From Candidatus Bathyarchaeota archaeon (GTDB lineage: Archaea > Thermoproteota > Bathyarchaeia > Bathyarchaeales > Bathycorpusculaceae): 64,000 bases of DNA. Below are positions 2,908-53,769 of the stretch, in pieces. Location: positions 32,001-96,000 of the forward strand of contig CAVZJV010000014.1 of the NCBI GenBank assembly GCA_963775685.1. The letters run 5' to 3'. Both the position numbers and the translations under genes were made by a program. The notes beneath the pieces are model-generated. The model saw only the letters and a program-made list of their open reading frames with translations, did not search any database and was not told where the DNA came from. Position 1 is the stretch's first letter. Each line of letters begins with the position of its first letter.

Positions 2908-3882
2908 GTGCAGTCTTGGTTAAGAAACCTTGACGAATGCACTTATATCTTTAATGAGTGCCTAACAAATTGTAGAGATGATGATGTGAACAAGCATTGG
3001 GTTCTGCCAATCAGCCTTGCCTTTCTTTTGTCCATGGTTGCCACTATTCCAGTTATCAATGCACAATCAGTTGGCAATATAGTGATCAACTCCGACGGCG
3101 CCTTCACAGGGACAGATGCCATTAACCGCAAGGGTAACACCTACACTTTAACGGCAAACATTTCAGGCAACATACAAATTCAGAGGAGCAACATAATAGT
3201 AGACGGCGCAGGGTATTCGCTTAACCAAGGTGGAATAGACCTAACAAACGGAATAGGGCAAGACCCAACACGTTCTACCATTATCAATGTAACAATCGAA
3301 AACTTGTATGTCGAAAGCGGCAGCATAGGCACTAATGGGGGTGGAAATTACACTTTCTACGATGACTACATACCTTCTATCCAGTTTTTAGGAGACTGTA
3401 TTAACAATAACATAACTTTCTGCACCGTTGAAGCAGTATCATTTGATTACGGAGGAAACGCAACATTAACTGAAAATAACCTCGGTAGCGTCTTAGTATG
3501 GTTAAGCTTTGGCGGAGTTGCTGACAGAAACTATTGGAGTGATTATTTAACAAAATATTCTAATGCTACAGAAATAGACAGCACGGGAATAGGTAACACG
3601 CCCTATGTATATTCTATAGTAGAAACACAGACGCCCTTAATCTATAAGGACAATCATCCGTTAATGAAGCCAGTTGCAATTCCGTTGATGGGTTCAAATA
3701 CTTTAAGCCCATTAACCCCAACACCTACTATAACACAGCTTCCTACAGTTAATACTGGTGCAGAAACACCACAGACAGAGTCTATAATTATTGTCGCTAT
3801 TACCTTTGTAATCGCATTAGCGGTGGCTGCTGGTTTGTTTTACTATTTCAGGAAACAGAAGCATGGAGCTGTACAAGGATGA
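2908..3882 (+). CDS. Right-handed beta-helix (NosD/pectin-lyase-like) membrane-anchored protein; true start probably ~2986
   Basis: YTLTANISGNIQIQRSNIIVDGAGYSL, NYWSDY...GIGNTPY...DNHPLM motifs, C-terminal TM. Confidence 0.75.
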   Translation: MQSWLRNLDECTYIFNECLTNCRDDDVNKHWVLPISLAFLLSMVATIPVINAQSVGNIVINSDGAFTGTDAINRKGNTYTLTANISGNIQIQRSNIIVDGAGYSLNQGGIDLTNGIGQDPTRSTIINVTIENLYVESGSIGTNGGGNYTFYDDYIPSIQFLGDCINNNITFCTVEAVSFDYGGNATLTENNLGSVLVWLSFGGVADRNYWSDYLTKYSNATEIDSTGIGNTPYVYSIVETQTPLIYKDNHPLMKPVAIPLMGSNTLSPLTPTPTITQLPTVNTGAETPQTESIIIVAITFVIALAVAAGLFYYFRKQKHGAVQG

Positions 3883-4559
3883 AAAGAACAAAATTGGCGG
3901 TAATAGTCATTTTAGCGCTAGTAATTTCAGTGCCAGCGCTTCTACAAGTTAATTTGGTAAGAGCGCATTATTATCCACCGCCCTCCATTGAAATCTTTTC
4001 GCCAATCCCTGCTCCCGACGTTCATTCAACTGCATCTGTTCCACTTCAGGTTCGTGTTAACGTCTTAACAGACGACGCTGCCATTACTTTCATCCGTTAT
4101 AGTCTGGATGGAGGAGCCAACGTTACACTTACCGATTTAACAAGAGAAGACGGGCTTTATTATTGGACTACTACAAAAGGCGTTTTTGCACATGGCAATG
4201 CTTTCAGTACACAAGCCTCTTTGGACAACGTAGACGAAGGCAATCATACGCTTATCGTGTACTCGCACGCTGCTGATGGTAAAGAAATGTCGCGAACACG
4301 AGAGTTTAAAGTGGACTACAACTATGTGCCGCCTCAACTACCACCTTTAACATTGCCCAATGGCACATCAATGCAACCAGCGACTTCATCAGCCCAAACT
4401 GAAACACCCATAACAACAAACGCAGATAGTTTCCAACCCTTCGAAGACCCTGCATTATTCATAATTATAGCTTGCATTTCGGTATCGCTGTTAGCAGGAA
4501 TACTGTTCTTCAGAAAAAAACCTAAAGGTTTTATGAAATTGAAGGACAAAGAAAATTGA
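3879..4559 (+). CDS. Ig-like domain surface protein with C-terminal TM
   Basis: Signal peptide, PSIEIFSP...YSLDGGANVTL...EGNHTLIVY, TM plus RKK. Confidence 0.75.
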   Translation: MKRTKLAVIVILALVISVPALLQVNLVRAHYYPPPSIEIFSPIPAPDVHSTASVPLQVRVNVLTDDAAITFIRYSLDGGANVTLTDLTREDGLYYWTTTKGVFAHGNAFSTQASLDNVDEGNHTLIVYSHAADGKEMSRTREFKVDYNYVPPQLPPLTLPNGTSMQPATSSAQTETPITTNADSFQPFEDPALFIIIACISVSLLAGILFFRKKPKGFMKLKDKEN

Positions 4560-4643
4560 GTGTACCAAAACGTTGGTCGCTTGTTCTAAACTGTAGCATT
4601 AAATATCACTTTAAAGCTTAGATAGACTGGGAATGCCACCTAA

Positions 4644-5177
4644 ATGAAAATAACTCGAAAGCATACGCTATTACTAGTTGTTATTCTTTTAATTGCCCTT
4701 TTCTTAGTCTTAACCGTTTTTTTGGCGAGTAATCAACCAGTGGCCTCTTCTCCCCAATCAGAAGGTAGTGTCTATCTTCATTTTCCAAGTGATTACCAAG
4801 GAGGCGAAGAAACCAAGGCTTACTTGATTGACTCACAACTTTATTATGGAAATTACAACCAAAGCTTCACCCGCTCAGGCGCCACAGGCTCTTATTCTAT
4901 TAACAATGGCGATGCGTGCGTTATCATAAATGGAACAATTAGAAATGACTACTCCAAAGATTACTATTTCAGCATAACAGCAAATGTTTACAATTCTACA
5001 AACCAAAAAATCGGACCAATTCTTACCGCAAACTCGCCACAGCCAGGTTTCACCATTACTAAAGTGAGCAACAGTTCAATAGGAACATTTGAAATACAAA
5101 TACCATACGACAGAAAAGACATCGCAAACTACGACCTTCTTCTCGCATTCGAACCAACCGAAACCCCACCCCCTTAG
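4644..5177 (+). CDS. Hypothetical N-anchored extracellular protein
   Basis: N-terminal TM, beta-rich domain (IINGTIRNDY...ITANVYN). Confidence 0.7.
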   Translation: MKITRKHTLLLVVILLIALFLVLTVFLASNQPVASSPQSEGSVYLHFPSDYQGGEETKAYLIDSQLYYGNYNQSFTRSGATGSYSINNGDACVIINGTIRNDYSKDYYFSITANVYNSTNQKIGPILTANSPQPGFTITKVSNSSIGTFEIQIPYDRKDIANYDLLLAFEPTETPPP

Positions 5178-5298
5178 GAGATTTGACTTGAAAAGCCCAA
5201 GCGTCCAACCAAATAATGCAACTGTTAACGCGATTCCTATAGCGCTAGCAATAGTTACGGTTGCTGGTTTGTTGGCGTACTCCAAAAAACATAAGCCG

Positions 5299-5934
5299 AT
5301 GAAGTTAAGTGAGCTGAGTAAAGGTTTGGCTTTAGCTTTTGTTCTAACATTGGTTGTGTCAAGCCTAATGATGGTTGAATCTGCAGTCGCTCAGACACCT
5401 ACACCTGTTGCAACTTTGACACAGTCAGAACCAACTGTTTCTTTTGCTCTTTGGCATACAAATTCATCTGTTATTCAGCCACCAGCAGATGAACTTGAAC
5501 ATATTCCTCCAATCTGTGAAATAGTGTTTCCTGAAAATCAAACTGTGTTGCAAGCAAGCAACTTTACATTAACAGTAGATGTGGCTTCGTATTTTTGGAC
5601 GATTGATAGTGTTTATTACCAAGCGGATTGGCAAGACGGTATTCACCAGCTTTTTGGTATTCAGACTAATTATGTAAACTCATTAAACGCCTCAATTGTC
5701 GCAACGTTTCAACAGATTCCTTTCGGTAATCATACATTGACCGTTTATGCTAATACCCATGATAACTCCCATAGCAATGCCACAGTTACATTTTCAACCG
5801 AAAGGTTCACAGAAAAACCTCAGCCTTCTTCGTCTTTTTCCGTCGTAGCTGTTGTTGCTGTCATCTTAGTAGTTTTCGGAATAAGTGTAGGTTTTATGCT
5901 TTATAGAAGGCATCGAAAAACCGCTAACCCCTGA
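5299..5934 (+). CDS. Ig-like surface protein with C-terminal TM (ORF track start 5089 probably too long)
   Basis: Signal peptide from MKLSELSKGLAL; PPICEIVFPENQT...GNHTLTVYAN; TM plus RRHRK. Confidence 0.7.
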   Translation: MKLSELSKGLALAFVLTLVVSSLMMVESAVAQTPTPVATLTQSEPTVSFALWHTNSSVIQPPADELEHIPPICEIVFPENQTVLQASNFTLTVDVASYFWTIDSVYYQADWQDGIHQLFGIQTNYVNSLNASIVATFQQIPFGNHTLTVYANTHDNSHSNATVTFSTERFTEKPQPSSSFSVVAVVAVILVVFGISVGFMLYRRHRKTANP

Positions 5935-5980
5935 ATTAAGGCCTTTTCTCAATCAAATTTATAATCACCCAATCGCTTGC

Positions 5981-5998
5981 TGTTCTTTTAGCGGAACA
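5981..5998. promoter_or_regulatory. Operator copy TGTTCT-TTTAGC-GGAACA
   Basis: Same half-sites and 6-nt spacer, upstream of ORF 6094. Confidence 0.5.
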
Positions 5999-6093
5999 GA
6001 TTGTTCTCTAAGGAGAGCTAAAAGTAACTCTAGCATACTCTATTTTGAGCAGAAATAAAGAAAGCTCTGTAACTAAGGGGAAATGATGACTAA

Positions 6094-6546
6094 ATGAAAA
6101 CCAAAGTAAAAGTTTTAGCTATAATAATTTCAGCAATAGTCATAGCAACCATTGGATTTACTGTTGAATTTAGTGTTATACCAACCGAAACACAGTCTAT
6201 TTCTTCACTAATAACAACGCCAACGAAACCTATAACAAATAATGTGACAGTCTCAGGTTTAATTATTAGCCACGGCTTAACTGTCCCACCTACCGAAGTG
6301 CAATTCATAAACACAGAAACCCATGAGGTTTACAAAGCGCCAATAAGTCAGCCACAATATTCCTATGCTATATCTCTTCCAGTTAATCAAACGTATGGTA
6401 TAGAAGGCGACTGGAACGGCAGGACATTTAACGCTACTGGAATACCGATGGGTGCCATAACAATGAGATGTGACAATGGTTTACCAATTCTAAATCTATA
6501 CAACGCCAACAGCACAATGATACAAAATCTTGTCGTTGGGCAATAA
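6094..6546 (+). CDS. Hypothetical N-anchored protein
   Basis: N-terminal TM, 150-aa ORF. Confidence 0.6.
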   Translation: MKTKVKVLAIIISAIVIATIGFTVEFSVIPTETQSISSLITTPTKPITNNVTVSGLIISHGLTVPPTEVQFINTETHEVYKAPISQPQYSYAISLPVNQTYGIEGDWNGRTFNATGIPMGAITMRCDNGLPILNLYNANSTMIQNLVVGQ

Positions 6547-6881
6547 GAGTAAGTAAACCTTTTCCCACGGCTAGAATACACTTTCATTTTAAGGCATGCT
6601 GTTTAGTGGTCCCTTTGCCTGCGACTGGTGAAAAGCATATTTCTCTAATTATGGACGCAGTTGCGGAAAAAGCTCTCATCAGTCTCCAGCTTAATATCCC
6701 CTGTCTTGAGCTTCAGCGTTGACTATATGTTAATTCTTATAAAGTGGCTTGGTGATAGGCCTATTTTGTGTAGGCCGCTCTGTGGAAAGCGGTAAGTTTC
6801 AATCTCTTCCCGGGGCTGCGGGCTTGCTAGTTTACTTCAAGAAACGCAAATACTACAGTCAATAGCAAAGAAACAAAACAG

Positions 6882-7102
6882 AACCCTTGGCATTCACCCG
6901 CTTATCCGCACGGATTCTACAGAGTATAACATGCGGCTGGCAGGAATGCTTTCTCCAAAGGAATGCGTCTCAAGTACAGTCGAGGCCTAATTAAAGATGA
7001 CAAAGTAATCTCAGGAGTGGACAAGAAAGAAGTATTCACCGCTTTATAATTGACCTGCCCTTTGCCACATGATCGCGAGATATTAGAAACAAACCTCTTT
7101 GG
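6882..7102 (+). pseudogene. Decayed family X DNA polymerase (thumb) fragment
   Basis: Translates LGIHPLIRTDSTEYNMRLAG/FSKGMRLKYSRGLIKD...EVFTAL*LTCPLPHDRE, matching the intact PolX at 22621-23205 with a frameshift and a stop. Confidence 0.8.
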
Positions 7103-32574: not shown

Positions 32575-35500
32575 CTAAGTCATTTGCCGTTCAGCTCTTG
32601 GGGGGGGCAACCGTACAATAAAAGTTGTTCCTTTGCCCTCTTGGCTCTCAAATGTTACGGTGCCGCATAATGCTTCAGTCATCCGCTTGATTACTGCTAG
32701 ACCAAATCCTTGGCCTTTGGCTTTTGTGGTGAACATTGGAGTAAACAACTTGCCTTTCACTGCTTCAGGAATGCCGACACCTGTATCCTTAACAGATATG
32801 ACGGTATCATTTGCTTCTTTGTATGTGCGAATGGTTAGTTTGCCGCCCTTTGGCATGGCTTGAACAGAATTATTCACCAAATTGTACAATATGCGATTTA
32901 TGAAAGTGGAGTCAGCCACAACTTTTGCAGTATCTACTTTAACACTTACTTTAACATTCTCTGGCAAACCGTTCTTTGATAGCAAGTCATCAATTATAAG
33001 TTTCAAATCAGTTTCTTCAGCATTTGGCTTAAGAGGCCTTGCAAAATCTTGCAAATCAGCAACAATTTTGTTAATGTAATCTATATTCTTTTCAATTTCT
33101 GTTAGGCTTTCTTGGATATTATTTTTCTCTTCCCCTTCAGGAATTGAATCCAACTCTGTTTTAGCCAAATAAACATCCCCAATAATAGCCTGCAGTGGAT
33201 TTCGGATATCATGACCCACCATACCCGCAGTAGCTCCTATAGCTGCTAAACGTTCAGCATCCTTCAACTGCACGGCTCTTTGATTAGCAAGCTCCTCCAT
33301 CTGATTAGCATACTCTTCAAGAAGGACAGCTGATTCTTCAAGCTTTAGTTGCATTTGAATTCGTTCAGTAACATCAACATTCGACTCCAACACCTCCACT
33401 ATTTTGCAGTCAGATCCAAATTTTCCCAACCAATAACTTTGCACAACCAACCTACTGCCATCTTTACAAATGTGGACAATTTCTCCTGACCACTTCCCCT
33501 TGGTTCTGAGTTCATTTTGAATCTTCTTAAGCGATTGTGGCAATTGGGTCTTCAACAACAAATTAGCATCTTGCCCTATGGCTTCTTCTTTTGTCCAACC
33601 GTAAAGTCTCTCAGCACCTTTACTCCATAAAGTAACAGTACCCTCAAGCTTTCTGACAATTATAGCGTCGGGACTAAGATCAATAAGCTCAGCCTGCCTT
33701 GCCACAGCTTCCTCAGCTTTCTTGCGTTCAGTAATATCTCGAACTACTGAAACTGATCCAGTAATGGAACCATTCTTATTTCTGATGGGAACAGAACTGA
33801 CTATGCGGGTCTTCAACTCTCCACTCCCGGGAGTTCTTACCATTTCCTCTTGATTTTTTACGATTTCTCCGCTCAGTGCACGCAGAGGTGGAGCTTCCTC
33901 AACAGGTCTTGGGCTGCCATCAGGACGATACACTTCCGAAGATGCAGCTAAGTTTTCAACGTCTGTATTTGAAGAGGCATTTAACTTGAACTCTTTAACC
34001 GCCGACGGATTAGCTAAAGTAAACTTTTTTTCTGCTGCATCAGCAAACCAAATCTCGTCCATTATACCGTTCAACACCGATGACAGCTTATCTCTCTCTT
34101 GCTGCGCTACATCTTTTTGGTGTTCCAACTCCGCTTCAGCTTTCTTGCGCTCAGTAATATCCACAGAAAAACCGATTACACCAATGATATTGCCCTCTGC
34201 GTCCCGGTATGGAATTTTGTCAGTTAGAACCCACCTCTGCCCCTGCGCGGATTGCATCTTTTCTTCAATGCCGACCTTAGCTTTGCCCGATGCAATGACT
34301 TGTTTGTCGTCACTCCAGAAGGCTTCCGCCTCTTCCTTAGGATATATCTCGAAAAGCGACCGCCCTTCAAGCTGCTCTTTAGGCAACCCCATAATCTCGG
34401 CAAACGACTTGTTTACCCGGATGAAATGGTTTTCGAGGTCCTTGTAAAAAATTAACCCTTGGGATGAGTCAATTATTGTTTGCAGTTCATCCTGCTTTTT
34501 CGACAAAGCTTCTTCAGCTTTCTTGCGCTCAGTAATATCAACGAATGCTCCAAGGCAACCACGCACGTTTCCAGCGTCATCCAATAGGGGTTTGGCATTC
34601 CCAAGAATCGTAATCTTTCTGCCACTGGGAACTATTACTTCTAGCTCAGAGTTTTTGATTTCGATGTTTTTTGCGGCTGCTTCCTGCATAGGAAGCTCTT
34701 GGGGCATCAATTCTTTTCCATTCCGGAAAAACCGCCTAGTAGTATCTTGTGCGCTTCCACTTGCTGGTCCAGCTGAAACGTTCTCCTCACCCTCTGCTTC
34801 GTAGAAAGTGTTTGCAGCCTGATTACCAACAATTACTTTGCATTTTGGGTCCTGGGATACCCAAACAGCGGCAGGAATGATATCCATAAGTTTTCGTAGT
34901 TCTTCAGCACTCTGACGAGCGTGTTCCATACTTCTTTTGAGCTCTTCTTCGGCTTTCTTGCGCTCGGTGATGTCCTGAACCATCCCAATTGAACGAATAA
35001 TTTTGCCAGTTTTGTCTCGAACATGATCACATTTTTCGTAGACAACTCTTATTTCACCGGTTGATTTTCTAACCACTCGATGTTCAATTTCATAAGTATC
35101 TCTACCCTCACGTAAAGATCCCAAGTATGCAGAGTCTACGGCTTCACGGTCACTTGGATGAACCGCCTGCAGAAATGCTTCGTACGTTGCGTCGAATTCT
35201 TGAGGTTTCAAACCAAAGATTCGGTAAATTTCATCTGACCACGACAACTTATTTTTTACTAAGTCAAGTTCCCAACTTCCAAGATGTGCAATCTTCTGAC
35301 TCCTTTTTAGACTTCTCTCACTTTCCAGCAAATCTTCTTCGGCTTTTTGGCGTTTAGTAATATCTCGGAAAATTAGTACTACTCCGGTTGTTTTGCCGTC
35401 TTTATCTTTTATAGGTGCTCCGCTATCGTCAATTGGAATTTCCGACCCATCTTTTCGTATCAAAACGGTGTGGTTAGCCAAGCCTACAGCTATACCTTCC

Positions 35501-36171
35501 CTAAGAACTTTAGCGATGGGGTTTTCAACCTCCAAACGAGTTTGCTCGTTTACGATGTTGAAGACTTCTTTCACGGGCTTCTGCACACTTTCGCTCAATG
35601 TCCAACCGGTTAATTCTTCAGCCACGCGGTTCATGAACACTGTTTTGCCTGATGTGTCTGTTGCGATTACGGCATCGCCAATACTAAATAATGTTGTTGA
35701 CCAACGCTGCTCACTTTCCTGCAGCGCTTCATCAGCATTCTTACGCTCTGTGATATCTCGTCCTATGCCAACAATTATTTGTTTTTCAGTTAGCGGATGA
35801 GAGTTCCATGATATCCACCTGTACGAGCCATCTTTGCATCGGTATCTGTTTACGAAGAGAACTGCGTTCTTGCCTGTTTCGTGAGCTCTAAACACAGCTT
35901 GAGTTTTTTCAATGTCGTCTGGATGAAGAAAATCATAAAACGGCTTTGAGATTACCTCTTGTTTTGTCCAGCCTAAAATTCTTTCAAACGAGGGATTTAC
36001 TTGTTTAAAACGGTTGTCAAATCCAACAAGAACTAGCAAATCCAGAGAGTAATCGAAAAACAAGTCAAGTTCAAGTTCTGTTGGCTTGCTTTCAAAGGTT
36101 GCAGGATTACTTTCTTTACTTTCAGGCAAAGAATTCACCAGATCAGCATGAAGTAACCTGTGCGCACGCAA
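32575..36171 (-). CDS. Soluble multi-PAS (about 7) sensor histidine kinase
   Basis: Seven D(I/V)T(E/K)R PAC ends; H-box VGHDIRNPL; N, DTGVGIP, FTTK, GFGL boxes; no TM. Confidence 0.92.
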   Translation of the reverse strand: MRAHRLLHADLVNSLPESKESNPATFESKPTELELDLFFDYSLDLLVLVGFDNRFKQVNPSFERILGWTKQEVISKPFYDFLHPDDIEKTQAVFRAHETGKNAVLFVNRYRCKDGSYRWISWNSHPLTEKQIIVGIGRDITERKNADEALQESEQRWSTTLFSIGDAVIATDTSGKTVFMNRVAEELTGWTLSESVQKPVKEVFNIVNEQTRLEVENPIAKVLREGIAVGLANHTVLIRKDGSEIPIDDSGAPIKDKDGKTTGVVLIFRDITKRQKAEEDLLESERSLKRSQKIAHLGSWELDLVKNKLSWSDEIYRIFGLKPQEFDATYEAFLQAVHPSDREAVDSAYLGSLREGRDTYEIEHRVVRKSTGEIRVVYEKCDHVRDKTGKIIRSIGMVQDITERKKAEEELKRSMEHARQSAEELRKLMDIIPAAVWVSQDPKCKVIVGNQAANTFYEAEGEENVSAGPASGSAQDTTRRFFRNGKELMPQELPMQEAAAKNIEIKNSELEVIVPSGRKITILGNAKPLLDDAGNVRGCLGAFVDITERKKAEEALSKKQDELQTIIDSSQGLIFYKDLENHFIRVNKSFAEIMGLPKEQLEGRSLFEIYPKEEAEAFWSDDKQVIASGKAKVGIEEKMQSAQGQRWVLTDKIPYRDAEGNIIGVIGFSVDITERKKAEAELEHQKDVAQQERDKLSSVLNGIMDEIWFADAAEKKFTLANPSAVKEFKLNASSNTDVENLAASSEVYRPDGSPRPVEEAPPLRALSGEIVKNQEEMVRTPGSGELKTRIVSSVPIRNKNGSITGSVSVVRDITERKKAEEAVARQAELIDLSPDAIIVRKLEGTVTLWSKGAERLYGWTKEEAIGQDANLLLKTQLPQSLKKIQNELRTKGKWSGEIVHICKDGSRLVVQSYWLGKFGSDCKIVEVLESNVDVTERIQMQLKLEESAVLLEEYANQMEELANQRAVQLKDAERLAAIGATAGMVGHDIRNPLQAIIGDVYLAKTELDSIPEGEEKNNIQESLTEIEKNIDYINKIVADLQDFARPLKPNAEETDLKLIIDDLLSKNGLPENVKVSVKVDTAKVVADSTFINRILYNLVNNSVQAMPKGGKLTIRTYKEANDTVISVKDTGVGIPEAVKGKLFTPMFTTKAKGQGFGLAVIKRMTEALCGTVTFESQEGKGTTFIVRLPPPRAERQMT

Positions 36172-45182: not shown

Positions 45183-45440
45183 TTGGAAGAAGTTATAATT
45201 GAAATAGGGCAAGTCATACATTTCTTCTCAAAAATCAACGTTGCCATAGTCGAATTAACGTTGCCCCTCTCCATCGGCGACCGCATCCTCATAAAAGGTC
45301 CCTCAACAGATTTTGTCCAAATCGTTACTTCGATGCAGATAGATCGCAAAGAAATTAAAAGAGCCGAAGGCGGACAAAGTGTAGGATTGAAGACGATTCG
45401 GCAGCCGCGGGAAAAAGACGTTGTTTATAAGCAACTTTAA
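45183..45440 (+). CDS. Translation elongation factor-like beta-barrel protein
   Basis: IGQVIHFFSKINVAIVEL...GDRILIKG.STDF.Q.V.SMQID. Confidence 0.8.
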   Translation: MEEVIIEIGQVIHFFSKINVAIVELTLPLSIGDRILIKGPSTDFVQIVTSMQIDRKEIKRAEGGQSVGLKTIRQPREKDVVYKQL

Positions 45441-46567
45441 GGTATGATTTCAGCGCCGTTATATTTTAGGTAATCAAAGTCTTTTATCCCAACGGTTCCT
45501 TTCCCTATTAGTCTTCGGATACGTGGAACTTCGCTTGCTACCGCTTTGATTAGTTGTTCTACTGTGTAGCAAACTTTATTGTACGCATCGTTACTCCAGC
45601 GTTTGGCTATGTTTGTGTAGAGGCATCTGCCGCCGCAAATATCTAGAATTTTGCAATCCACACAGGGTTTTTCGTTAACAAAGATTTTTTCAAGTTTCAA
45701 AGGGTTGGTATCTTTTATGTGCCCAAGATAGTATTCTTTCATCCCCCACATTGTTGGGCATGGAATAATGTATCCGTCAGTTTGGATAGCGTAATTTATC
45801 CAGCCGCCTCCGCAACGCAGCAAGCAATCTTTTTCTTCATGTAAAAGCGAGTTGGCTATGCCCAAAATTGGGTAGAGCTTAAGCACAGTGCCCTCCTCTT
45901 GGATTTGGTCAACCCAAAAATGCACCAGCTTCTCAATGCCTGGAATGTAGCTGGTTTTGGTCCACTCTTCAAAGTTGCGTCTTTGATAGTCATTGCCCCA
46001 AAAACCAGCATTCAGTTGCCAATGAATCGAAGTAAACGAAAAATCAGGGTTATCCAGGAGATATCTGACTTGTTTTTCTATGTCGGTTTGCTCCATTATG
46101 GTCATGCGAGCAATCAATTCTCCAGCAAACCCATTTTTCCTGATTAATTTTAGGTTGTTGACGACGTTCTGGTAAGTTCCTGCCCCGCGGTAGGCATCCG
46201 TTAAAGTTTCTTGTCCATCAATAGAGACAAGGATGGTGTGGAAACGGTTAACGTATTTTGGCTCCAGTTTGTCAAGAAGTAAACCGTTTGTTTGCACCAT
46301 GTACTGTTTAGGTGATACTTTATCCATGATTTGCCTAAGCTTATCTATCTGCAGCAGTGGTTCTCCACCATAGAAGGTCAAAACGCAATCAGGGTCCTGG
46401 CGGCAGAACTTATCAAGCAGCGCTAAATCGTAGCTGAGCCTACGTGGCAAATCATAATCAACTTCAATGTCGTCGCCAAAGTCCTCATCGAAATCATCAA
46501 GGCTCTCGCCAAAGCAGTATTTGCACTGCAGGTTGCAGTCACTTGTCAATATGACATGGAAGAACAT
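45437..46567 (-). CDS. Radical SAM/SPASM protein (AF0577-like putative peptide-modifying family)
   Basis: CNLQCKYC, GGEPL, CGGG...GYIIPCP, CVDC...CGGRC SPASM cysteines. Confidence 0.88.
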   Translation of the reverse strand: MFFHVILTSDCNLQCKYCFGESLDDFDEDFGDDIEVDYDLPRRLSYDLALLDKFCRQDPDCVLTFYGGEPLLQIDKLRQIMDKVSPKQYMVQTNGLLLDKLEPKYVNRFHTILVSIDGQETLTDAYRGAGTYQNVVNNLKLIRKNGFAGELIARMTIMEQTDIEKQVRYLLDNPDFSFTSIHWQLNAGFWGNDYQRRNFEEWTKTSYIPGIEKLVHFWVDQIQEEGTVLKLYPILGIANSLLHEEKDCLLRCGGGWINYAIQTDGYIIPCPTMWGMKEYYLGHIKDTNPLKLEKIFVNEKPCVDCKILDICGGRCLYTNIAKRWSNDAYNKVCYTVEQLIKAVASEVPRIRRLIGKGTVGIKDFDYLKYNGAEIIP

Positions 46568-46591
46568 GCTTTAGATGAGCACATGGGTTGT

Positions 46592-47905
46592 TTAATAGTA
46601 TTTTTCTGCAAGTTCCTCAGCTTTCTTATATTCTTCACTTTTTTCTTGCTCGGGCTTGTTCTTTTGATGTTTCTTGGTTTTTTCCTCTTCGTTCTGAGCA
46701 ATTCTCTGAGCCTTCTCAATATACTTTTTCAGCTCCATATCTTTCATGCGTTTTTCAGGCAAGGTTTCAGGCGCATACAGCAAGGGTAAGACAGCTAAGA
46801 AAAGAAATACGCTTGCAAAAGAGAATATGGGTATTTGACTTATGTCAGGTACATAGAATGCAAAAACTTTGGTTAGGAAACTGGAGAATACATAAGGTAA
46901 AGCGCCTAAGAAGTATAATTTATCGCTGTTTCTGGCTTGAGATAGGTCGCCCCATATTATGAGCAGAAATACTATATTGAATATTCCCCATGCAATTCCG
47001 TCTGATACCACGTAAAAGTATCCAGCCAAGTTTATATCTGGAAAAAGTCCTAAGATAGCATATCCGATTCCTAACATAATGAAGCCTACAATCGTTAAGC
47101 GTTTGCGACCGAAAAGGTCAGCAACAAATCCGCATGTGACAGCAGTGACTGCCATAATGATGTTTTCTAAAACGTAAATTAGAAAATTGTAAGTTGGACC
47201 AGATCCTAAAAGGTGGTTCTGAATTGGAACCGTCATATAATTTACAAGGGACACCATACACCATGAAACAAAGTAGAAAATAAACGACCTGTTAGACAGA
47301 ATATCTTTGAATTTAACCTTGTAAGTTTCTTTGCTACTTGGTTCTTCCACATTAAATCCACAAAAGACTAAAAATCCAAATAATCGTATAGCGGAAAGAA
47401 CGACGCAAGCTAAAACAACATCGCTTATTATAAATGCGCCAAGCACAGAGAAAAGCAAGCCCATTAACAGAAGAGTAATCCCGCTAATTTTTGCACGGTT
47501 CTCTACCATAGTGTGGCTGGAGAAATACCCCATAACTACAGGCATTCCGACTCCAAAATAGGCTCCAAAAACACTTGAAATCACAAGAGTGCCAGTTACG
47601 CTTGATAGATCCATTGCGAGAGGTAGAAATGAAAGAAAAACACCGCTTAACATCCATAAACTGAGGAAGTTAGTTCGTTTTTTTAATTTGTCAACTGCAA
47701 ATGAACCTACGAATGCTAAAATTGCTATTGAAACTGCGTTCACGCCAAAAACGATAAGTGTTAAGGGGCCAGTATTCGGATCTATTTTATCCGTTAGAAT
47801 CTTGAGGGTTTTGAAAACTAGCAAATACCAAACAAAGGCGTTTCCTACTAAGAAAACATTTGTCGTAGTTAGTTTTAGAGTTGGCTTAACATCTCCCAGA
47901 GGCAC
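46592..47905 (-). CDS. MFS transporter-like protein
   Basis: ~12 TM, GFVADLFGRKR motif A, PET plus charged tail. Confidence 0.88.
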   Translation of the reverse strand: MPLGDVKPTLKLTTTNVFLVGNAFVWYLLVFKTLKILTDKIDPNTGPLTLIVFGVNAVSIAILAFVGSFAVDKLKKRTNFLSLWMLSGVFLSFLPLAMDLSSVTGTLVISSVFGAYFGVGMPVVMGYFSSHTMVENRAKISGITLLLMGLLFSVLGAFIISDVVLACVVLSAIRLFGFLVFCGFNVEEPSSKETYKVKFKDILSNRSFIFYFVSWCMVSLVNYMTVPIQNHLLGSGPTYNFLIYVLENIIMAVTAVTCGFVADLFGRKRLTIVGFIMLGIGYAILGLFPDINLAGYFYVVSDGIAWGIFNIVFLLIIWGDLSQARNSDKLYFLGALPYVFSSFLTKVFAFYVPDISQIPIFSFASVFLFLAVLPLLYAPETLPEKRMKDMELKKYIEKAQRIAQNEEEKTKKHQKNKPEQEKSEEYKKAEELAEKYY

Positions 47906-48050
47906 TTGCTGGACATCCTTAAAGTTGTAACTTTCTAGGTGTTTTTGATAATTAAGTATTAAGGATTGGTAAAATTGATTTGAAATATAGTTTATGTAGG
48001 TAACCTTTTAAGCATATTTGTACAACACATCTACTTCGAGGAAGGTTGCT

Positions 48051-48095
48051 ATGAAGGCAAACAACAAAGTAACTCGTTCAAGTGGATGGGTTTAA
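48051..48095 (+). CDS. 14-aa micro-peptide MKANNKVTRSSGWV (candidate prenylated-Trp precursor)
   Basis: TTTTAAG TATA-like box at 48006, GAGGAAGG RBS, same SSGWV end as 49182-49241. Confidence 0.7.
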   Translation: MKANNKVTRSSGWV

Positions 48096-49108
48096 GAAAA
48101 CCCGTTCGCAAAAAAAGCAAAGGGAGCGGAAAGCAATATTTTTAGCTCCTCCCATTTTTCTTCTTCTAAGCTTTTCTGTAAGATCCCAACAATACAATTA
48201 GCTGATACGTTTAATTCTTCAAGAAATTCCTGAACTTCAGGGGTCTCAAAAACTAAATCGATTATTTTTTCTTGTGCAGAATTATCAGATAAGTCCTGGC
48301 TCAAAAGAGGAAGAAGCATCTTTCTAGTTTGCAAATTCTGCAACGCATAGATTAAAGGTAAAGGTAGGCATCCATTTTTCAGCCGATTAGCCACTTCCAA
48401 AGGGTCAAAAATGTCTGCGCACTCATCAGATACAAGCGAAACAACCCCGTAACTTCTACCAAATTCACCTAACTCTTCCACCAAATCTTGTTCTGCCCCC
48501 CCAACGATGGCACCGATTTTCATAGTTAATTCAGGAACAACTGCCTTCAACCTGATTATGTCATAAAATTCATTTGGAGACAAATCCAACCGAGCTTTCA
48601 AGCTAGCCTCTAAGGTTTCTGCCATGGAAATCTCCAATATTGCCTCAGATATCAAACTTCTAATTTGCTTGCCCTGACCTTTGGGAAGCTTATCGCATTC
48701 ATTATGCAATTGCGTTAACCCTTCAGCCAAAAGAATGTCGCCAGCTAATATTGCTGCGGTTTCGCCGAATTTGCCAAAGACAGTTGGCTTGGGACCTTTA
48801 AAGGTTGACTTATCGATAACGTCATCGTGTAAATCAGCGGCTCCAGTTATTAGTACGATTGCTTTTCCAAAAGGAATTGCCTGTTTAACGTTTCCTCCTA
48901 CTGCTTTGCATGAGATGACTATAAGTGCAGGAAAAACAGGCATGGTGTTATGAAGAGTTATTTTTGAGAAGTGCCTTAGTGATTGAGAAATAATGCTCTT
49001 GTCTTTGTTTGCTGAGATTATTTGCTGTCTCGCTTGTTTTAGGGCAAGACCACCGTTTTCCCTAAAAATCTTTTTCATTTTCCGAATTAGAGCCTGATTG
49101 GAGGGCAT
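48092..49108 (-). CDS. Divergent polyprenyl-synthetase-fold prenyltransferase (ComQ-like candidate)
   Basis: FARM HDDVID, AILAGD, LK retained; SARM is DECAD; GKxxR and RRG motifs absent. Confidence 0.85.
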   Translation of the reverse strand: MPSNQALIRKMKKIFRENGGLALKQARQQIISANKDKSIISQSLRHFSKITLHNTMPVFPALIVISCKAVGGNVKQAIPFGKAIVLITGAADLHDDVIDKSTFKGPKPTVFGKFGETAAILAGDILLAEGLTQLHNECDKLPKGQGKQIRSLISEAILEISMAETLEASLKARLDLSPNEFYDIIRLKAVVPELTMKIGAIVGGAEQDLVEELGEFGRSYGVVSLVSDECADIFDPLEVANRLKNGCLPLPLIYALQNLQTRKMLLPLLSQDLSDNSAQEKIIDLVFETPEVQEFLEELNVSANCIVGILQKSLEEEKWEELKILLSAPFAFFANGFS

Positions 49109-49181
49109 TTGTATCAGGGTTTAATTGTTTTGAGTAAATATTTGGTTTTTGGAAAAAAATGAGGCGTTGGAAAGGGTTTTT

Positions 49182-49241
49182 TTATACCCATCCCGATGAG
49201 ATTGGTTTACCGCGGATATTTTTGCCATTTTTGCTTACCAT
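49182..49241 (-). CDS. 19-aa micro-peptide MVSKNGKNIRGKPISSGWV (candidate prenylated-Trp precursor)
   Basis: GAGGTGA RBS 6 nt before ATG; between the protease and prenyltransferase genes, same strand. Confidence 0.75.
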   Translation of the reverse strand: MVSKNGKNIRGKPISSGWV

Positions 49242-49266
49242 ATTTTTTCACCTCACATTTGCTAAT

Positions 49267-50118
49267 TTAATTTAAGAAACTTTGTATCCAGGTTAAGATA
49301 CTCTGTGTATCTATCCTAGTGTGATATGTTATTCCTGCACAGTTTGCATTACGTACGTACGCGTTAATGGCAAGGACAATGTCTTGAGTGCCGCCGTTAT
49401 AGATTACTGGGCCGCCTGAGTCTCCAAATGCCACGCCGCCTTTGCCTTGGCTGGGGTTGGCTGTTAATTTGAGGTATTTGTCACTTCCAGCAAAGTTCCC
49501 AGATACTATTTTGGCTTGTGCGGAGTTGCATGATAATGTTCCAACCAACGAGTTAACAACGCCGTTGTCTTTGGGAGTCGCTTGGAATTGAAGACCATAA
49601 CCTACCTCCTTCAAGATAGTTTTATTATCCAACATATCAGAGAAACCTGCTCGAGGTAAAGCTGGAAAATCTTCAACACCTGCAACTGCTTGAACAAGTT
49701 TTATTAATCCTATGTCGCTTGTTTCAAATTCGTTATTGCCTGAAAAAGAGGGGTTATACAGCGGATAGATTATTGGAAAACCATCATAAATTGTATTTGC
49801 ACCATAATAGGTGATTTTTCCCTTCTCAAGAGTATAGCTAATTGGTCCCTTATCAAAACAAACGCTGACTGCTTGCACACCGACCAGACTGTGACCTGCC
49901 GTCACCATAACTGTTGACGAAATCAAGAAGCCTGAACAATAACCAATCGGGTTAGTTTTCGCTTCGTCACTAAAAAGCACGACTACCCCAGTATACGGAG
50001 TTGAATCTGGGCGAATGTTTCCTGTTATTCCGTATACTGTGCCAGTAAATAGAGCCAAAGATGCCAAGATTGGCAGGATGGTTAACGTGATAGCTTTGGT
50101 TGTTTTCAAATTATCCAC
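49267..50118 (-). CDS. Secreted trypsin-like (S1) serine protease
   Basis: Signal peptide; CSG, TAGH, DIGL, GDSGGP triad motifs. Confidence 0.9.
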   Translation of the reverse strand: MDNLKTTKAITLTILPILASLALFTGTVYGITGNIRPDSTPYTGVVVLFSDEAKTNPIGYCSGFLISSTVMVTAGHSLVGVQAVSVCFDKGPISYTLEKGKITYYGANTIYDGFPIIYPLYNPSFSGNNEFETSDIGLIKLVQAVAGVEDFPALPRAGFSDMLDNKTILKEVGYGLQFQATPKDNGVVNSLVGTLSCNSAQAKIVSGNFAGSDKYLKLTANPSQGKGGVAFGDSGGPVIYNGGTQDIVLAINAYVRNANCAGITYHTRIDTQSILTWIQSFLN

Positions 50119-53361: not shown

Positions 53362-53769
53362 TTAATGGCTCACTCTAGCGGGTTCTTCATGGTTCTTAAG
53401 CTTCTCTTCTAAAAGAACCAGCAATTCCTGAGGTTTCACGGGCTTAACCAAATAAGCGTCTGCGCCTTCATCAAGAGCTTTAACGCCAGTTTCAAGTGAC
53501 GGGAACCCCGTAATCATTATTTTGACGGTGTGTTGGAGTTGCTTTTTGAGTTTCGCTAATAACTCGGTGCCATCCATATCCGGAAGTCTGATGTCTACCA
53601 ACGCTAAGTCAAAATGGTCGTTTCCCGCTTTTTCTATGGCTTCTTTACCTGTTTCCGCAGTTTCAATCTCATAACCGCTTTTTTGGAGAATGCGTGTGAA
53701 GGTTCGAAGTATTGATTTGTCATCGTCAACAACAAGTATTGTTTTTTTATGTGCAGCCAATTCTAACAT
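53362..53769 (-). CDS. Single-domain response regulator
   Basis: ILVVDDD, LVDIRLPDMDG, ITG, YLVKP. Confidence 0.92.
   Translation of the reverse strand: MLELAAHKKTILVVDDDKSILRTFTRILQKSGYEIETAETGKEAIEKAGNDHFDLALVDIRLPDMDGTELLAKLKKQLQHTVKIMITGFPSLETGVKALDEGADAYLVKPVKPQELLVLLEEKLKNHEEPARVSH

Follow-up and report, generated by a model that had tools for sequence, protein, structure and literature searches.

Synthase-like peptide prenyltransferases, that is, those resembling the trans type of synthase for isoprenyl diphosphates (trans-IDS), all act on tryptophan (Trp or W) in the characterized cases. The Trp modified by ComQ of Bacillus is the third or fourth residue counted from the C-terminus, and this enzyme accepts a basic peptide of just 11 residues, as described in PMC5331326. 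PalQ needs a C-terminal Trp and prefers a Gly before it (PMC13290415; PMC10853753), and the PalQ/PalX cluster includes a histidine kinase (PMC10853753). StheQ, described as having the IDS fold with a Mg site bound by the first Asp-rich motif (FARM), prenylates the Trp second from the C-terminus (10.64898/2026.08.29.745113). Only a few systems, all bacterial, are known to carry out such Trp prenylation. To our knowledge, no ribosomal lipopeptide or peptide pheromone has been described for archaea. Here, we analyzed a 64,000-nucleotide stretch of a Candidatus Bathyarchaeota archaeon genome (the window), in which a divergent trans-IDS homologue of 338 amino acids (aa), encoded at 48092..49108 on the minus strand, lies between two micro-open reading frames (micro-ORFs) that both end in SSGWV. 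Judging from sequence and gene context, we favor, with some confidence, the reading that this homologue is a Trp prenyltransferase acting in the manner of ComQ, PalQ, and StheQ on the two micro-precursors, which would then be exported.

These bacterial enzymes were set beside the archaeal family through published descriptions rather than sequence alignment. On the archaeal side, a scan of one genome per species gave 236 confirmed relatives of the synthase homologue among species representatives, and locus counts given out of 79 or 77 refer to the best 79 of these 236, almost all from Bathyarchaeota/Bathyarchaeia metagenome-assembled genomes (MAGs); such counts overstate independence because the loci come from related genomes. 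As in ComQ/ComX of Bacillus subtilis, a trans-IDS-fold enzyme stands beside a short gene with the acceptor Trp near its C-terminus, the flanks are conserved while both enzyme and peptide vary greatly, and, in the archaeal loci that we call kinase-type only, a membrane histidine kinase lies beside the enzyme. However, the ComX precursor has 53-73 aa with W third or fourth from the end, whereas archaeal precursors have 10-20 with W last or second from last. The main archaeal peptide gene is convergent with that of the enzyme, whereas the ComX gene lies downstream on the same strand. A major facilitator superfamily (MFS) transporter stands in place of the ComQXPA kinase and regulator in most archaeal loci, and the host is an archaeon. 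With PalQ, the likeness is that 16 of 64 archaeal peptides terminate in W, many of these in GW or GGW. Unlike these peptides, PalX has a nitrile-hydratase-type leader domain, PalQ itself is annotated as a terpene synthase, and PalQ is inactive with residues after the Trp, whereas 44/64 archaeal peptides, both of the window's included, have one. In these same 44 the W is second from the end, as it is in StheQ/StheX of Sphaerobacter thermophilus, although StheX has 69 residues, lies downstream on the same strand, and is far longer than the archaeal precursors. The bacterial relatives beyond ComQ, namely PalQ, StheQ, and ChrPC, fit the archaeal peptides better than ComX does, and in the position of W and the preceding Gly the agreement with the known chemistry is close.

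The preliminary description of this DNA knew of no archaeal equivalent, and our literature searches agree: no paper on such a system in Bathyarchaeota/Bathyarchaeia was found (supplements not covered), and the main text of a survey of archaeal peptides that are made on ribosomes and modified after translation (PMC12144867) makes no mention of prenyl, tryptophan, Bathyarchae, radical SAM, polyprenyl, or MFS.

Micro-ORFs with a tryptophan tail

Peptide 1 (14 codons, MKANNKVTRSSGWV) is encoded at 48051..48095 on the plus strand, convergent with the synthase gene (2 nt are common to the two stop codons) and divergent from the MFS gene. Its ATG is preceded at 5 nt by the Shine-Dalgarno (SD) sequence GAGGAAGG (48038..48045, plus strand) and, further upstream, by a promoter at 48004..48026 of the same strand, composed of a BRE/TATA-like CCTTTTAAG (48004-48012) and a TGTACAAC box (48019-48026). 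Peptide 2 (19 codons, MVSKNGKNIRGKPISSGWV), of a class designated 'KP', is encoded on the minus strand at 49182..49241, between a protease gene and the synthase gene, with the SD sequence GAGGTGA at 49248..49254 (minus strand), 6 nt before its start. The shared tail is written TCA AGT GGA TGG GTT in peptide 1 and TCA TCG GGA TGG GTA in peptide 2, with different Ser and Val codons. All of this bears out the preliminary description, which had reported the two flanking micro-ORFs, a ribosome-binding site before each, identical tails in different synonymous codons, and the order protease, peptide, synthase, with the other peptide divergent from the MFS gene and a radical SAM gene. In the 3.06-Mb genome, 10 of the 224,665 stop-to-stop segments with a length of 5 aa or more end in GWV and only 4 in SGWV; the window's two micro-ORFs, 1.1 kb apart, are two of these four. 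The other two were rejected as chance matches, the third (window ~56105, minus strand) lying antisense inside a 425-aa gene and the fourth (C14:1276178) being non-basic and without context.

Two search rules were applied to relatives. Under the strict rule (10-25 codons, an ATG/GTG/TTG start, at least three K/R, at most one D/E, and W in the last four residues), which was applied to 22 family genes from relatives, an antisense micro-ORF was found just downstream in 12/22 and on the control strand in 1/22, against an expectation of 0.084 per region from the genome's own density. The looser rule, used with matched windows, called for a basic ORF of 10-20 codons with W in the last four residues and a stop between -30 and +80 nt from the synthase stop; such an antisense micro-ORF was present in 64 of 77 loci, a positive outcome for the check suggested in the preliminary description, which was to look for Trp-terminal micro-ORFs near synthase homologues. 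Seven other antisense windows gave 0-10 of 75-79, sense windows 3-15 of 75-79, and shuffled sequences 195/3850 (5%). On these counts, we regard the micro-ORF observation as real and strongly conserved.

The equivalents of peptide 1 also carry expression signals and signs of coding. A canonical start was present in 53 of the 64, with lengths of 10-20 codons and a mode of 14. Of these 53, 50 have a TATA-like GCTTTTAAG-type motif at a distance of 45-65 nt ahead of the start (15% at random positions), 31 have a TGTACAAC-type box (9%), and 44 have an SD-like site (11%); the TATA-plus-box combination is unique to the peptide 1 promoter in the whole genome. The peptides are basic and Lys/Arg-rich, with tails mostly of the form ..R-x-x-G-W-x or ..GW/GGW. 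Gly precedes W in 29/64 and is written with three codons across equivalents, and the nearest upstream Arg, which 62 of 63 distinct peptides have, is written with each of the six Arg codons and sits 4 residues before W in 26/62. Among the five kinase-type loci, the indel inside the peptide ORF is of 3 nt and the one just before the SD of 2 nt. As for the same-strand 'KP' peptides, all those listed are preceded by GAGGTGA, which lies 5-8 nt before the start in L031, L032, L035, L044, L045, and L047. In loci with both peptide classes, the last five residues agreed at four or more positions in 12/20, compared with 12 of 380 pairs (3.2%) in a cross-locus control, examples of tails common to both peptides of one locus being SSGWV, QAGWI, SMGWW, WSGWL, VVGWL, and SFGGW. 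That two tails encoded separately should vary together suggests a common partner by which the tail is read. Together, these signatures show the W-tail micro-ORFs to be real, separately promoted protein-coding genes.

A different explanation would leave the micro-ORFs untranslated and assign the conserved promoter to an antisense or small RNA controlling the 3' end of the synthase transcript. Such an RNA would account for a peptide gene that is convergent with the synthase gene and overlaps its stop (the same 2-nt overlap recurs in 13/79 loci), for the very good conservation of the promoter, and for the 11/64 equivalents without a canonical start, but it fits poorly with synonymous codon turnover at the conserved Gly and Arg, in-frame indels within the ORF, an SD at the right spacing, and same-strand second copies that share the tail. 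Rfam gave no match at E up to 1 in 44-51 kb of the window, and no tRNA was found there. We consider this explanation very improbable.

Some features of the peptide genes deserve mention in their own right. In three loci, an ACG is conserved just after a GGAGGAA-type SD, and in the kinase-type loci an ATA is conserved 7-8 nt after GGTGGGG, where the fifth species (L066) has ATG; ACG and ATA at those sites may be non-canonical start codons. The equivalents without ATG/GTG/TTG include those of L039, L040, the second cassette in L032, L033, L034, L059, L061, L064, and L074. The peptide promoters (that of the window and its equivalents in L053-L130) have two elements in common, a TGTACAAC(A) box located between TATA-like motif and SD and an AATACA motif ~20 nt before the start; L037 and L038 repeat the box. 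The box and AATACA could mark the transcription start region or an operator for a regulator. No annotation of the peptide genes was encountered, and no search of public gene calls for them was completed. Among sequencing runs, no RNA run containing the locus was listed, and one DNA run contained 7% of the words searched. In L136, from the same genus, a 14-codon basic micro-ORF with the family promoter (~1600-1680) lies upstream of an MFS and radical SAM pair; it ends in ..VVG rather than Trp, and a run of N, which marks an assembly gap, stands where the synthase gene would be. L136 may be a decayed or mis-assembled cassette.

The synthase homologue and its proposed reaction

The synthase homologue matched Pfam PF00348 (polyprenyl synthetase) over residues 60-285 with 79.9 bits (cut-off, 27). 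Fifteen NCBIfam families were matched, none of them a ComQ family and all below the equivalog cut-off (best, IdsA_Meth, 95.6 versus 468 bits, 3e-27). The homologue belongs to a paralogue family plainly distinct from the housekeeping geranylgeranyl diphosphate synthase (GGPPS). In 41 related genomes, the family matched at E values of 1e-40 to 1e-99, versus ~1e-11 for the housekeeping enzyme, and in a tree it formed one long monophyletic branch relative to the GGPPS of the window's genome. The latter enzyme is canonical and is kept elsewhere in the genome, beside an isopentenyl diphosphate (IPP) isomerase-like gene.

Canonical archaeal GGPPS/IdsA (1wy0) provides the best sequence matches and shares the Pfam family and the first Asp-rich motif, but it has GGKRxRP, the second Arg after FARM, and a canonical second motif, and it has no fixed peptide/MFS context. 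In the archaeal family studied here, D92, H94, D95, D96, D99, K104, and T109 are invariant in 70/70 aligned sequences; the family has therefore retained FARM as well as the Lys that aligns with the first of the Arg residues following it. We take the ligand residues of human farnesyl diphosphate synthase (FPPS) to correspond to the GGKRxRP motif and the Arg residues after FARM. In human FPPS, IPP is directly held by Lys57, Arg60, and Arg113, and the allylic site is formed by the DDXXD motifs plus Arg112, Lys200, and Lys257, as described in PMC4106277. The genome's own GGPPS carries GGKRWRP, MRRGRP, FQMQDDILD, and EGKRS. In the synthase family, GGKRxRP (Region I) is deleted or replaced without any K/R, the second Arg after FARM (RRG) is lost (position 105 is G/Y/D/E), and the last Lys (that of EGKRS) is Cys. 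The second Asp-rich motif reads (D/E)(E/D)FxD, not DDxxD, with D32/E32/N5/H1 at its first position, E57/D13 at its second, and D67/N3 at its last among the 70 aligned. On the residue mapping assumed above, the donor site would be kept and the IPP site lost.

The homologue could instead be an ordinary or specialized isoprenoid synthase whose product is exported by the MFS transporter, the peptides remaining unmodified and serving, for example, as a regulator, chaperone, or antimicrobial. Public sources do label its homologues as synthases of geranylgeranyl or heptaprenyl diphosphate, a GGPPS is its closest match in the PDB, and acidic residues remain at the second motif. Yet the family has lost the basic residues for IPP binding while a canonical GGPPS is retained in the genome, all scores fall far below the NCBIfam equivalog cut-offs, and such a function leaves unexplained both the near-terminal Trp, the sole constant of the peptides and often preceded by Gly, and the co-variation of tails within a locus. 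We hold this explanation to be unlikely.

In the Trp prenylation that we favor, the homologue would no longer elongate IPP. Its intact first Asp-rich motif would bind an allylic diphosphate, geranylgeranyl diphosphate (GGPP) or farnesyl diphosphate (FPP) being the likely donor in an archaeon, and the prenyl chain would be transferred to the indole of the near-C-terminal Trp, as it is by ComQ, StheQ, and PalQ. Prenylation would take place in the cytoplasm, after which the MFS transporter would export the cationic lipopeptide. A secreted trypsin-like protease, where present, might conceivably cut after the conserved Arg/Lys. The product could be a signal or an antagonistic lipopeptide, with signaling favored for the kinase sub-type.

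Several observations weigh against this reaction. In Trp prenyltransferases, the second motif is described as repurposed and as having a conserved Gln just upstream (PMC13290415, section 2.4), which in StheQ is Q212, one turn upstream of the pseudo-second motif N215-D216-D219 (10.64898/2026.08.29.745113). In contrast to the N-D-x-x-D plus Gln of StheQ, the archaeal family has no such Gln, positions 224/225 being S/M/L and T/I/S, and its second motif is still acidic at three positions, (D/E)(E/D)xxD; it is therefore without the marks described for ComQ-type enzymes. Among PDB profile matches, archaeal GGPPS 1wy0 scored 2e-41, versus ~5e-28 for the indole prenyltransferase Ord1 (9v4g-j), and the archaeal precursors are far shorter than any described for the class, including ComX and StheX. 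A W-tail micro-ORF is absent from both sides in 9/79 loci under the loose rule, and some of these nine, when inspected, had an acidic W-ended variant (one locus), a W-less one (one locus), or nothing recognizable (several). W-less peptide variants occur in a few loci, such as L092 and a same-genus genome beside an assembly gap, and the 11 equivalents lacking an ATG/GTG/TTG start in the allowed range belong here as well. The window's own cassette has no receptor gene. Finally, the set of 22 genes and that of 79 loci do not sample these genomes independently. Because the upstream Gln and the pseudo-motif are absent and the family is closest to GGPPS, we read it as ComQ/PalQ/StheQ-like in action but probably recruited separately from the ComQ-type enzymes; it is not a demonstrated member of the ComQ family.

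Transporter, protease, kinase, and radical SAM genes

The MFS transporter, the proposed exporter (46592..47905, minus strand; 437 aa; MFS_1, 47.4 bits), lies directly downstream of the synthase gene in 71/79 loci. Co-divergence was measured as the correlation (rho) of identities to the window's proteins across loci, and it linked the synthase homologue to the MFS transporter (rho 0.54, n=71) and not to LeuRS (rho 0.18, n=33). Median identity to the window was 38% for the synthase homologue, 39% for the MFS transporter, 57% for the protease, 70% for the radical SAM protein, and 81% for LeuRS. The protease itself is a trypsin-like (S1) serine protease of 283 aa with a hydrophobic N-terminal segment (49267..50118, minus strand; Pfam Trypsin, 44.7 bits). 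A homologue was found upstream of the synthase gene in 15/79 loci, 14 of which also have a family-like same-strand peptide between the two genes, and its identities correlated with those of the synthase homologue (rho 0.68, n=14). The preliminary description had placed both the MFS transporter and the protease in the pathway. On the evidence of conserved order and co-divergence, we consider a module of peptide, synthase homologue, and MFS transporter to be established, whereas the protease does not hold up as a general part and is an accessory member of a subset of cassettes.

In five species, each represented by one of the 79 loci (L059, L061, L064, L066, and L074), the cassette has a histidine kinase instead of the MFS transporter. 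This protein has 444 aa, six hydrophobic segments, and matches to HisKA (28.6 bits) and HATPase_c (83.2 bits), and its gene lies directly upstream of the synthase gene, which is followed by an antisense peptide ending in ..KPSGWY or ..KYSGWY. The kinase-type synthases nest inside the window's own clade in the tree. Because the order of kinase, enzyme, and peptide is that of the Bacillus and Paenibacillus clusters, a signaling role is favored, at least in this sub-type. A 1198-aa multi-PAS histidine kinase (32575-36171, minus strand) was considered as a receptor for the window's cassette and rejected, since it is 12 kb away and matches the kinase of the kinase-type cassettes only in the catalytic half, where the two are 54% identical. 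A single-domain response regulator is encoded at 53362-53769 on the minus strand (Response_reg, 104 bits).

The span given for the candidate system in the preliminary description also includes a radical S-adenosylmethionine (rSAM)/SPASM protein of 376 aa, encoded at 45437..46567 on the minus strand (TIGR04084; 308.4 bits versus a cut-off of 225). If it were the maturase of the real peptides, for instance by cross-linking Trp to an upstream Arg/Lys, the synthase homologue would be an auxiliary or provide a second modification. Streptide contains a Lys-Trp cross-link whose spacing resembles that of the Arg found 4 residues before W in the peptides described above. The rSAM gene starts after a 24-nt gap behind the MFS gene in the window and is adjacent in 43/58 loci with enough flank, 16 of them without LeuRS upstream, and its next-best matches are peptide maturases, such as PapB (9e-30). 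These points are outweighed, in our view, by the behavior of the gene across genomes. The identities of the rSAM protein, whose median is nearly twice those of the synthase homologue and the MFS transporter, showed no co-divergence with those of the synthase homologue (rho -0.05, n=45) and tracked LeuRS instead (rho 0.55, n=26). The window's genome has two cassettes but no second copy above the TIGR04084 cut-off; secondary and kinase-type cassettes lack the gene, and cassette-free genomes carry it at 37-51% identity with unrelated neighbors. A further point against a maturase is that the CxxxCxxC motif begins as early as residue 10, so that a peptide-recognition domain would have no space at the N-terminus. 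The rSAM protein was therefore rejected as a core cassette member. It behaves as conserved genomic background beside a variable insert and is probably a bystander, and the maturase explanation has, in our estimate, little chance of being right. A literature search on TIGR04084 and AF0577 found nothing relevant. Convergent with the rSAM gene, with a 4-nt overlap, is an 85-aa ORF (window 45183-45440, plus strand) without a Pfam or NCBIfam match, which relatives conserve next to their rSAM gene with 56-74% identity.

Spread, variation, and possible role

The spread of the cassette was assessed in 151 genomes of the class, evenly drawn and at least 80% complete. Scores were bimodal, and cassette-type matches (E below 1e-50) were found in 28 genomes, mostly in the window's order: in 14/20 genomes of its family and 6/6 of a sister family, with 0/6 in one further family of the same order. 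The cassette is thus common in this class, whose members are abundant in sediment and soil and for the most part uncultured. Within one genus, cassette synthases at the site between LeuRS and rSAM are only 29-51% identical and come with at least eight peptide-tail types, while the flanks of this site are 70-89% identical. The polymorphism of comQXP, with its Bacillus pherotypes, offers a parallel to this variation in tails.

A larger reading of these data, which we put forward tentatively and regard as possible rather than probable, is that of a widespread, allele-switching peptide-pheromone system of Bathyarchaeia. A leaderless precursor of 10-20 residues would be geranylgeranylated or farnesylated on its near-terminal Trp, exported by a co-evolving MFS transporter, and read by a dedicated six-helix histidine kinase in some lineages, with an enzyme recruited independently from archaeal GGPPS. 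If true, it would be the first peptide-based cell-to-cell signaling system in archaea. The Trp prenylation proposed above, if true, would make the cassette an archaeal counterpart of a known kind of bacterial system, with unusually small precursors, and would supply a very small, leaderless natural substrate (12-19 residues) for enzymatic peptide lipidation. The cassette gives the study of archaeal chemical communication or antagonism a starting point that can be tested directly, and it also serves as a warning that micro-ORFs can hold the key to the function of 'housekeeping-looking' paralogues.

Full cassettes were also seen in MAGs titled Sulfotelmatobacter, Limnocylindrales, Nanoarchaeia, Baldrarchaeota, or Crenarchaeota (L066, L070, L082, L076, and L068), and one protein-search match is titled Ignavibacteria. 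These odd taxon titles most likely reflect binning or labeling errors, not transfer. The window's genome itself carries a second cassette (C14:1058000-1068000, locus L051), in which the synthase homologue is frameshifted into two overlapping ORFs (5183-5593 and 4561-5265, minus strand). Beside it lie an MFS gene (2969-4231, minus strand), a divergent gene for a trypsin-like protease (Trypsin_2, 55.6 bits; 5772-6920, plus strand), and a basic ORF of 15 codons (4312-4359, plus strand) that has ..FGW followed by four residues ending in ..WR and is without the conserved promoter. Two further loci next to LeuRS show duplications: L032 has two cassettes 3 kb apart, a tandem duplication, and L036 has two tandem synthase genes, with a peptide gene and an MFS gene following the second copy only.

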